A DNA stretch of 6,909 bases from a virus. Lineage: Duplodnaviria > Heunggongvirae > Uroviricota > Caudoviricetes. Made by a program: the position numbers and the translations under genes. This document shows, piece by piece, positions 1 to 741 of this stretch (the stretch's first letter is position 1; the number at the start of each line of letters is the position of its first letter). The stretch is taken from IMG/VR virus record IMGVR_UViG_2713896900_000003, positions 1 through 6,909 of that record; one strand, given 5' to 3'. A model generated the notes under the pieces. The model saw only the letters and a program-made list of their open reading frames with translations, made no database searches and was not told the origin of the DNA.

Positions 1-126
1 GAAAATCGATACTGGAAAAACTCTAACTCGGTGGCCAGTTTTTGTTGACCACTTCATTCTCAACTTAGCGAGATTACAAAGTTACCTGTCAAACGGTGCA
101 ATGAAGCCAAGTTAGAACTCGTCAGA

Positions 127-741
127 ATGAATATTATCAAGCAGCAAGGCGGCATGTTTGGACCAAACAAAAACATCTCAGAATGGTGCATCCCTCAAAA
201 CGAGGGAAAATCCCCTAAAACGAGGGATAAAACATCCCTCAAATTGGGGGATTGCTATCCCTCAAAACAGGGGGACACAAAAGACACTATTACAAAAGAA
301 AAAAGAAAAGATTATTCGTCAGAGAATTCTGGCGAATCCTCTGACCAGCCAGAAAACGACCTTTCTGTGGTGAAAACGGATGCTGCAATTCAGAGCGGCA
401 GCAAGTGGGGGACAGCAGAAGACCTGACCGCCGCAGAGTGGATGTTTGACATGGTGAAGACTATCGCACCATCAGCCAGAAAACCGAATTTTGCTGGGTG
501 GGCTAACGATATCCGCCTGATGCGTGAACGTGACGGACGCAACCATCGCGACATGTGTGTACTGTTCCGCTGGGCATGCCAGGACAACTTCTGGTCCGGT
601 AACGTGCTGAGTCCGGCTAAACTCCGCGACAAGTGGACTCAACTCGAAATCAACCGTAACAAGCAACAGGCTGGCGTGACAGCCGGAAAACCAAAACTCG
701 ACCTGACAAACACTGACTGGATTTACGGGGTGGATTTATGA
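127..741 (+). CDS. O: Replication initiator O, C-terminal (P-interacting) portion only; N-terminal part not encoded in frame, probably a truncated remnant
   Basis: Frame-1 ORF translating MNIIKQQGGMFGPNKNISEWCIPQNEGKSPKTRDK...NTDWIYGVDL, which I recognise as near-identical to the C-terminal two-thirds of lambda O. The ori iterons lie inside the coding sequence as in lambda. Stop TGA 739-741 overlaps the P start (ATGA). In the same frame there is a TGA at 46-48, no ATG/GTG/TTG between 49 and 126, and no clear SD before ATG 127. Confidence 0.8.
   Translation: MNIIKQQGGMFGPNKNISEWCIPQNEGKSPKTRDKTSLKLGDCYPSKQGDTKDTITKEKRKDYSSENSGESSDQPENDLSVVKTDAAIQSGSKWGTAEDLTAAEWMFDMVKTIAPSARKPNFAGWANDIRLMRERDGRNHRDMCVLFRWACQDNFWSGNVLSPAKLRDKWTQLEINRNKQQAGVTAGKPKLDLTNTDWIYGVDL
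190..320. other. Lambda-type origin of replication: four iterons plus AT-rich unwinding region
   Basis: Four related ~18-19 bp elements with internal dyad symmetry: atccctcaaaacgaggga (190-207), atcccctaaaacgaggga (210-227), atccctcaaattggggga (234-251), atccctcaaaacaggggga (257-275), spaced 20-24 bp. They are followed by an A-rich stretch (about 276-320: cacaaaagacactattacaaaagaaaaaagaaaag). This matches the known architecture of ori-lambda inside O. Confidence 0.88.

Follow-up and report, generated by a model that had tools for sequence, protein, structure and literature searches.

An IS911 end adjoins a truncated O gene with ori-lambda in a cryptic prophage of Escherichia albertii

Why does a complete lambda-type replication origin lie within an initiator gene that lacks its origin-binding part? 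The question is raised by a stretch of 6,909 nucleotides, referred to here as the window. A first-pass annotation, made from the letters alone, had recognized intact ori-lambda iterons in a lambda-like O sequence and found no in-frame coding sequence for the N-terminal part of O. It proposed a defective or recombinant replication module, possibly served by a heterologous initiator encoded upstream, and named an assembly indel near positions 40-60, programmed frameshifting and a continuous O-like N-terminal sequence further upstream as findings that would overturn this view. The window is the exact reverse complement of an entire contig, BBVK01000043.1 (L021; 6909 bp), from the short-read draft genome GCA_001514685.1 of Escherichia albertii. 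In the reading that we favor, and to which we assign a probability of about 94%, the insertion sequence IS911 adjoins O at codon 72, the contig edge lies inside this IS, and the locus is a replication-dead remnant in a cryptic E. albertii prophage.

The sequence upstream of O is the right end of IS911

The following features were assigned to the first bases of the window.

1..56, plus strand: IS911 right end, 56/56 identical to the annotated IS911 of Shigella phage Sf6 (NC_005344); the contig starts inside the IS
1..48, plus strand: last 15 codons and TGA stop (46-48) of the IS911 transposase gene orfB, frame 1; ENRYWKNSNSVASFC followed by the stop equals the C-terminus of Sf6 IS911 OrfB
21..56, plus strand: IS911 right inverted repeat (IRR), identical to the Sf6 IRR; ends in ...GACCACTTCA (window 47-56) and contains an outward TTGACC (45-50)

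IS911 belongs to the IS3 family and was first described in Shigella dysenteriae. A sensitive blastn search with positions 1-70 matched the IS911 copy in ninG of Sf6 over 56 of 56 bases and phage SfII over 58 of 58, and thousands of E. coli genomes contain copies of the IS3-like ISEc52 with 91-94% identity. A full IS911 of 1249 bp in E. albertii CP025676.1 has these 56 bp as its IRR end. The identity to the Sf6 element includes the OrfB C-terminus, the stop codon and the tip of the IRR, and the end of Sf6 orfB falls exactly on TGA 46-48. In contrast to a full IS911, only these last 56 bp are present in the window. The reverse complement of 1-56 starts with TGAAGTGGTCAACAAAAACTGGCCACC... and matches the Sf6 IRR but differs from the left inverted repeat (IRL), which starts with TGAAGTGGCACACTG... 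The inverted repeat of IS911 is 36 bp long (window 21-56), and TTGACC at 45-50 has the role of a -35 element.

Regarding the hallmarks of IS911 and its family, a terminal inverted repeat of the form 5'-TG...CA-3' with the IS911-specific IRR is found at 21-56. The transposase gene orfB (DDE, rve) ends just inside this repeat, its last 15 codons lying in the window, and the full element in CP025676.1 carries HTH_Tnp_1 and rve genes. A target duplication of 3-4 bp is lacking in CP025676.1, and the window holds only one end of the element; this leaves the identification as IS911 unaffected.

Since positions 1-48 are the end of orfB, the TGA that breaks the O frame is the stop codon of the transposase. 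The translation of frame 1 reads ENRYWKNSNSVASFC, the stop at 46-48, PLH and then SQLSEITKLPVKRCNEAKLELVRM. In all frames, positions 1-56 are dissimilar to O, including its residues 54-72. The first-pass annotation had placed TGA 46-48, the first ATG at 127 and a frame 2 open from base 2 to TAG 113-115 correctly, and had considered the latter consistent with the 3' end of another ORF joined out of frame to O. Foreign DNA with a gene end is indeed present, but the gene is orfB in frame 1 and not the ORF in frame 2. The frame-2 ORF matches no gene, and an open frame of 37 codons is expected by chance with a frequency of about 17% ((61/64)^37). This reading frame simply crosses the IS/O junction and is, hence, a chance open stretch.

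The orfB stop (TGA followed by C, window 46-60) is in frame with the O remnant, and read-through would yield a transposase fused to O residues 73-299. Probably, this match of frames is a one-in-three coincidence; the IS has the other orientation in the finished genomes.

Break point and remaining part of O

The truncated gene, designated O', comprises the following.

57..741, plus strand: truncated lambda-type O gene (O'); third base of codon 72, codons 73-299 (58-738) and stop (739-741)
127..741, plus strand: longest ORF left in O', 204 aa; linker and C-terminal (P-interacting) part

Homology to lambda begins at base 56/57 in a megablast alignment, in line with the start of about 57 given previously, and window 56-800 corresponds to lambda 38900-39644 with 98.1% identity. 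Base 56, the terminal A of the IS, equally fits the A in codon 72 (GAT) of lambda O. From T57 on the sequence is unambiguously that of lambda, and codon 73 begins with base 58. The break falls after the second base of codon 72, and the first 215 nt of O, codons 1-72, are missing. O' is 99.2% identical to a module with an intact O of 299 aa (L008). Within positions 49-126, ATG, GTG and TTG are all absent from frame 1, and the first start in the O frame is ATG 127, which corresponds to Met96 of lambda O (299 - 204 + 1).

Studies of lambdoid hybrids and fragments have assigned iteron specificity to the N-terminal part of O and the contact to P to its C-terminal part. In the intact O of the near-identical prophage L008, the Pfam family PF04492 (Phage_rep_O) spans residues 22-115 (profile 1-95). 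In the window, the stop-to-stop frame 49-741 retains profile positions 52-95 only. More than half of the Phage_rep_O origin-binding domain is gone from O'; the first-pass annotation had judged from the reading frames that the DNA-binding part appears lost or displaced. The ORF starting with ATG 127 has no match in Pfam; it aligns with PHROG 277 ('replication initiation O-like') over profile positions 96-317 of 318 (E = 6.9e-98). A C-terminal O region together with an overlapping P gene, as is typical of a lambda-type O, is present.

Neither an indel nor a frameshift can restore full-length O, because no frame of 1-56 resembles O residues 54-72. Consequently, programmed frameshifting is not tenable as a source of the complete protein, and an assembly indel near 40-60 fails for the same reason, quite apart from the recurrence of the break in at least five other assemblies.

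Origin, P gene and promoter content

Downstream of the break the replication module is preserved.

190-207, 210-227, 234-251 and 257-274, no strand assigned: ori-lambda iterons 1-4, 100% identical to lambda 39034-39118 (NC_001416 annotation)
275..319, no strand assigned: A+T-rich unwinding region of ori-lambda, 100% identical to lambda
738..1439, plus strand: replication gene P, intact, 233 aa; overlaps the stop of O' (ATGA); Pfam PF06992 (Phage_lambda_P), E = 8.8e-62

All four iterons and the A+T-rich region, which has a role in the unwinding of ori-lambda (PMC5043065), are present with 100% identity to lambda 39034-39160. Thus, the earlier description of the iterons as intact, and of the origin and the C-terminal part of O as surviving, was accurate. 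P is intact as judged by Pfam, and an identical P protein occurs in 259 blocks of the sequence collection. The gene order O-P-ren-nin is that of lambda, with 98.1% identity over O'-P. Unlike in lambda, O lacks codons 1-72, the first half of Phage_rep_O, and pR, cro, cII and oop are not found upstream; pR, cro and cII are absent upstream both in the window and in the complete genomes. A promoter scan of positions 1-800 revealed no sigma-70-like promoter, including no hybrid of IS and flank that would use TTGACC (45-50) of the IRR.

It is established that ori-lambda needs both O at the iterons and rightward transcription from pR (PMC5043065). Firing would accordingly call for O dimers on the iterons and an origin activated by pR. 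A functional replicon combines a cognate full-length O with pR transcription, and full-length O is not encoded here, which agrees with the suggestion that the module is defective. Because of these two needs of ori-lambda, the remnant should be unable to initiate on its own, and we infer from its sequence that the origin is nonfunctional. What the prophage remnant retains is a perfect ori-lambda and an intact P, together with an O fragment from which over half of the origin-binding domain is missing. The iterons look 'intact' because they lie downstream of the break, within the surviving part of O, and because the remnant is young (approximately 98-100% identical to lambda). Their survival does not require selection as an explanation.

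The contig edge and sister prophages

The contig begins inside IS911 because the assembler could not extend through this multicopy repeat, and the DNA upstream is absent from the record because the contig starts within the repeated IS. The same break was found in at least five other assemblies (L014, L015, L016, L022 and L023), and two further contigs (L019 and L020) end 3 nt past it. Compared with the window, the prophage copies contain 0-3 mismatches over approximately 6.8 kb. The exact IRR-O' junction gave no match in the genome-contig collection, which consists of species representatives and does not include this strain, and none of the complete E. coli genomes matches bases 1-55 together with O.

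Two finished genomes carry the same remnant, CP025676.1 (strain SP140150, PMC5820351) and CP136258.1. In both, a complete IS911 adjoins O' at the same place; the 1249-bp copy in CP025676.1 is 99.0% identical (1236/1249) to IS911 of Sf6. On the far flank of the IS, both genomes have a resolvase/invertase gene that is truncated (Pfam PF00239, profile 2-123 of 145), beyond which Mu-like baseplate, tail and tail-fibre genes follow. Neither the 5' part of O nor cII, cro, cI or another initiator was found in the 10 kb beyond the IS in either genome. The continuous O-like N-terminal sequence that might have been expected upstream is replaced, in these two relatives, by IS911 and then by invertase and Mu-like genes. 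The flanking triplets are unequal, ATG on one side of the IS and TCT on the other, so that a target-site duplication is lacking and this IS is a rearranged copy that joins two unrelated prophage fragments. An intact module of the progenitor type (L008) contains cII, the 299-aa O, P, ren and ninB and is 99.2% identical over window 56-3288.

The remnant resembles IS-disrupted cryptic lambdoid prophages of E. coli, Shigella and E. albertii, which were inactivated by IS insertion or IS-mediated rearrangement, and its sister strains likewise gain further IS copies in the same element. Examples are IS911 in ninG of Sf6 and remnants of the Rac/DLP12 type in K-12. Nothing essential differs from these prophages; the target at O codon 72 and the join to Mu-like tail genes are particular to this E. 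albertii lineage. The cause of the O truncation is ordinary: the missing N-terminus of O reflects an IS911 insertion or rearrangement together with a contig break induced by the repeat. For annotation, O' should be called a pseudogene and the prophage a remnant defective in replication. Where the opening tens of bases of a draft contig look anomalous, comparison with IS ends is the first check to make.

Alternative explanations

In the finished genomes, the 5' part of O does not occur within the 10 kb beyond the IS, and we infer that it was lost rather than relocated in this strain. Against this, the far side of the IS lies outside the window, and the IRR faces O' here while the IRL does so in the complete genomes. 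The far flank could differ, and the 5' fragment of O could in principle sit across the IS. This leads to a simple insertion, in which O codons 1-72, cII, cro and cI would follow just past the 1.25-kb IS and precise excision would regenerate a working replicon. The end of the window inside the IS would fit such an arrangement, as would the different orientation of the IS, since the flank of the complete genomes need not apply to this strain. However, both complete genomes show the truncated invertase and Mu-like tail genes instead, with no target duplication. Moreover, the reciprocal junction that a simple insertion predicts, O(...GACAGAATCACCGAT) followed by 0-4 nt and an IS911 end, was not found: queries combining O nt ~195-215, 0-4 nt and TGAAGTGG gave 0 matches in the genome contig collection and 0 in the metagenome contig collection. 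A protein search with O residues 1-72 returned unrelated truncations only and no fragment ending in IS911-derived residues. An example of these truncations is P0104, which different DNA breaks at codon 70. We consider a simple insertion unlikely. Two further points weigh against a replication-dead remnant. The transposase gene lies on the same strand as O', and low-level read-through transcription of O'-P is conceivable; O might also come in trans from another lambda-type prophage in the same cell.

The other explanations have much less in their favor. Retention of the iterons, the P-binding O fragment and P as a chromosomal decoy against superinfecting lambda-type phages appears very improbable to us, and we think equally little of the mechanism it would require, in which the iterons might titrate incoming O or O' might titrate P. 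The remnant is common to several E. albertii strains, plasmid-borne copies of ori-lambda block lambda growth (PMC4488673), and oop with iterons 3-4 on plasmids silences rep-lambda phages (PMC3349717). But the published effects needed multicopy plasmids, and those of the Hayes study additionally oop, a sequence that is located upstream of O and does not occur in the window. The remnants are near-identical, so that recent common descent explains their sharing; O' has no evident promoter; and further IS copies accumulate elsewhere in the same prophage, as expected for neutral decay. It is still less probable that the gene is really intact and that an indel or a chimeric join near 40-60 simulates the break. 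Such an artefact would be at home in a short-read draft assembly with the anomaly at a contig edge, but a read set of independent origin (L014, SRR30505208) has the identical IRR-T-O' junction, one further read set, a metagenome scaffold and two finished genomes show the IS911-O' break, and the upstream 56 bp are unlike O in every frame. The proposal of a recombinant module served by a heterologous upstream initiator, whose tail would be the ORF in frame 2, we regard as practically excluded. As this proposal demands, no stop interrupts frame 2 from base 2 up to the TAG at 113-115; yet the foreign DNA at 1-56 is 100% IS911, the frame-2 peptide is not in the transposase frame, and the complete genomes encode no initiator within 10 kb upstream. 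An unrelated initiator would furthermore not use these iterons, because specificity resides in the N-terminal domain of the cognate phage O.

Orientation of IS911 and junction variants

The IRR points toward O' in the window (47-60) and in SRR30505208 (L014, 20-35). The IRL points toward O' in CP025676.1, CP136258.1, DRR415750 and one metagenome scaffold (junctions L013 9920-9935, L022, L023 and L016). Three junctions were distinguished:

IRR-CA followed by TTCTCAA: window and L014 (SRR30505208)
IRL-CA followed by TTCTCAA: L022
IRL-CA followed by TCTCAA: CP025676.1, CP136258.1 and L023

Some copies thus differ by one nucleotide (T) at the junction in prophages that are otherwise near-identical.

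As a source of the two orientations, homologous recombination among copies of the IS was rejected on logical grounds, since it keeps the same IS end facing a given flank. A second transposition is needed for this reason, and it is possible that one occurred next to the end of the resident IS911. A new IS911 could have inserted into the 3 bp beside the resident end and recreated the same junction, with the first copy being lost subsequently. According to work by Loot and colleagues from 2002, IS911 reportedly chooses its own ends as targets when little OrfA is available.

Further features of the window

An island of low GC content (0.28-0.37 compared with approximately 0.52 in the flanks) is located at 3300-6100, between ninE and ninG. 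It contains an ORF of 590 aa on the minus strand (3801-5573) that is 100% conserved in E. albertii and belongs to PHROG 9230, a family of unknown function. Homologues with 47-58% identity exist in Salmonella enterica and Providencia, and the ORF has no match in Pfam or PADLOC. The island may represent a moron, carried by the prophage as cargo.

A decayed IS911-like element on the minus strand (5728-6120) borders this island. It is approximately 66% identical to IS911 orfA/orfB, has ends resembling inverted repeats and includes a perfect (TATTTC) x 8.8 microsatellite at 5898-5950. The single gap between the window and L022 may be located at this element. Directly upstream of ninG, an ORF at 6046-6711 resembles homing endonucleases with HNH_3 and AP2 domains; it encodes 221 aa from a TTG start and is 188 aa long in the records.

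In CP136258.1 the same prophage contains an extra IS3-family element, with a 4-bp overlap at 1868-1871 (seen in L016/L024), and the contigs L017 and L018 end in IS911 sequence that abuts positions ~2745 and ~3169. These additional IS insertions in sister strains indicate ongoing IS expansion and decay of this E. albertii element. The other end of the contig, position 6909, stops inside ninG, although in the finished genomes Q and the lysis genes follow. Presumably, this end is another repeat boundary, in a region common to other lambdoid prophages of the genome.
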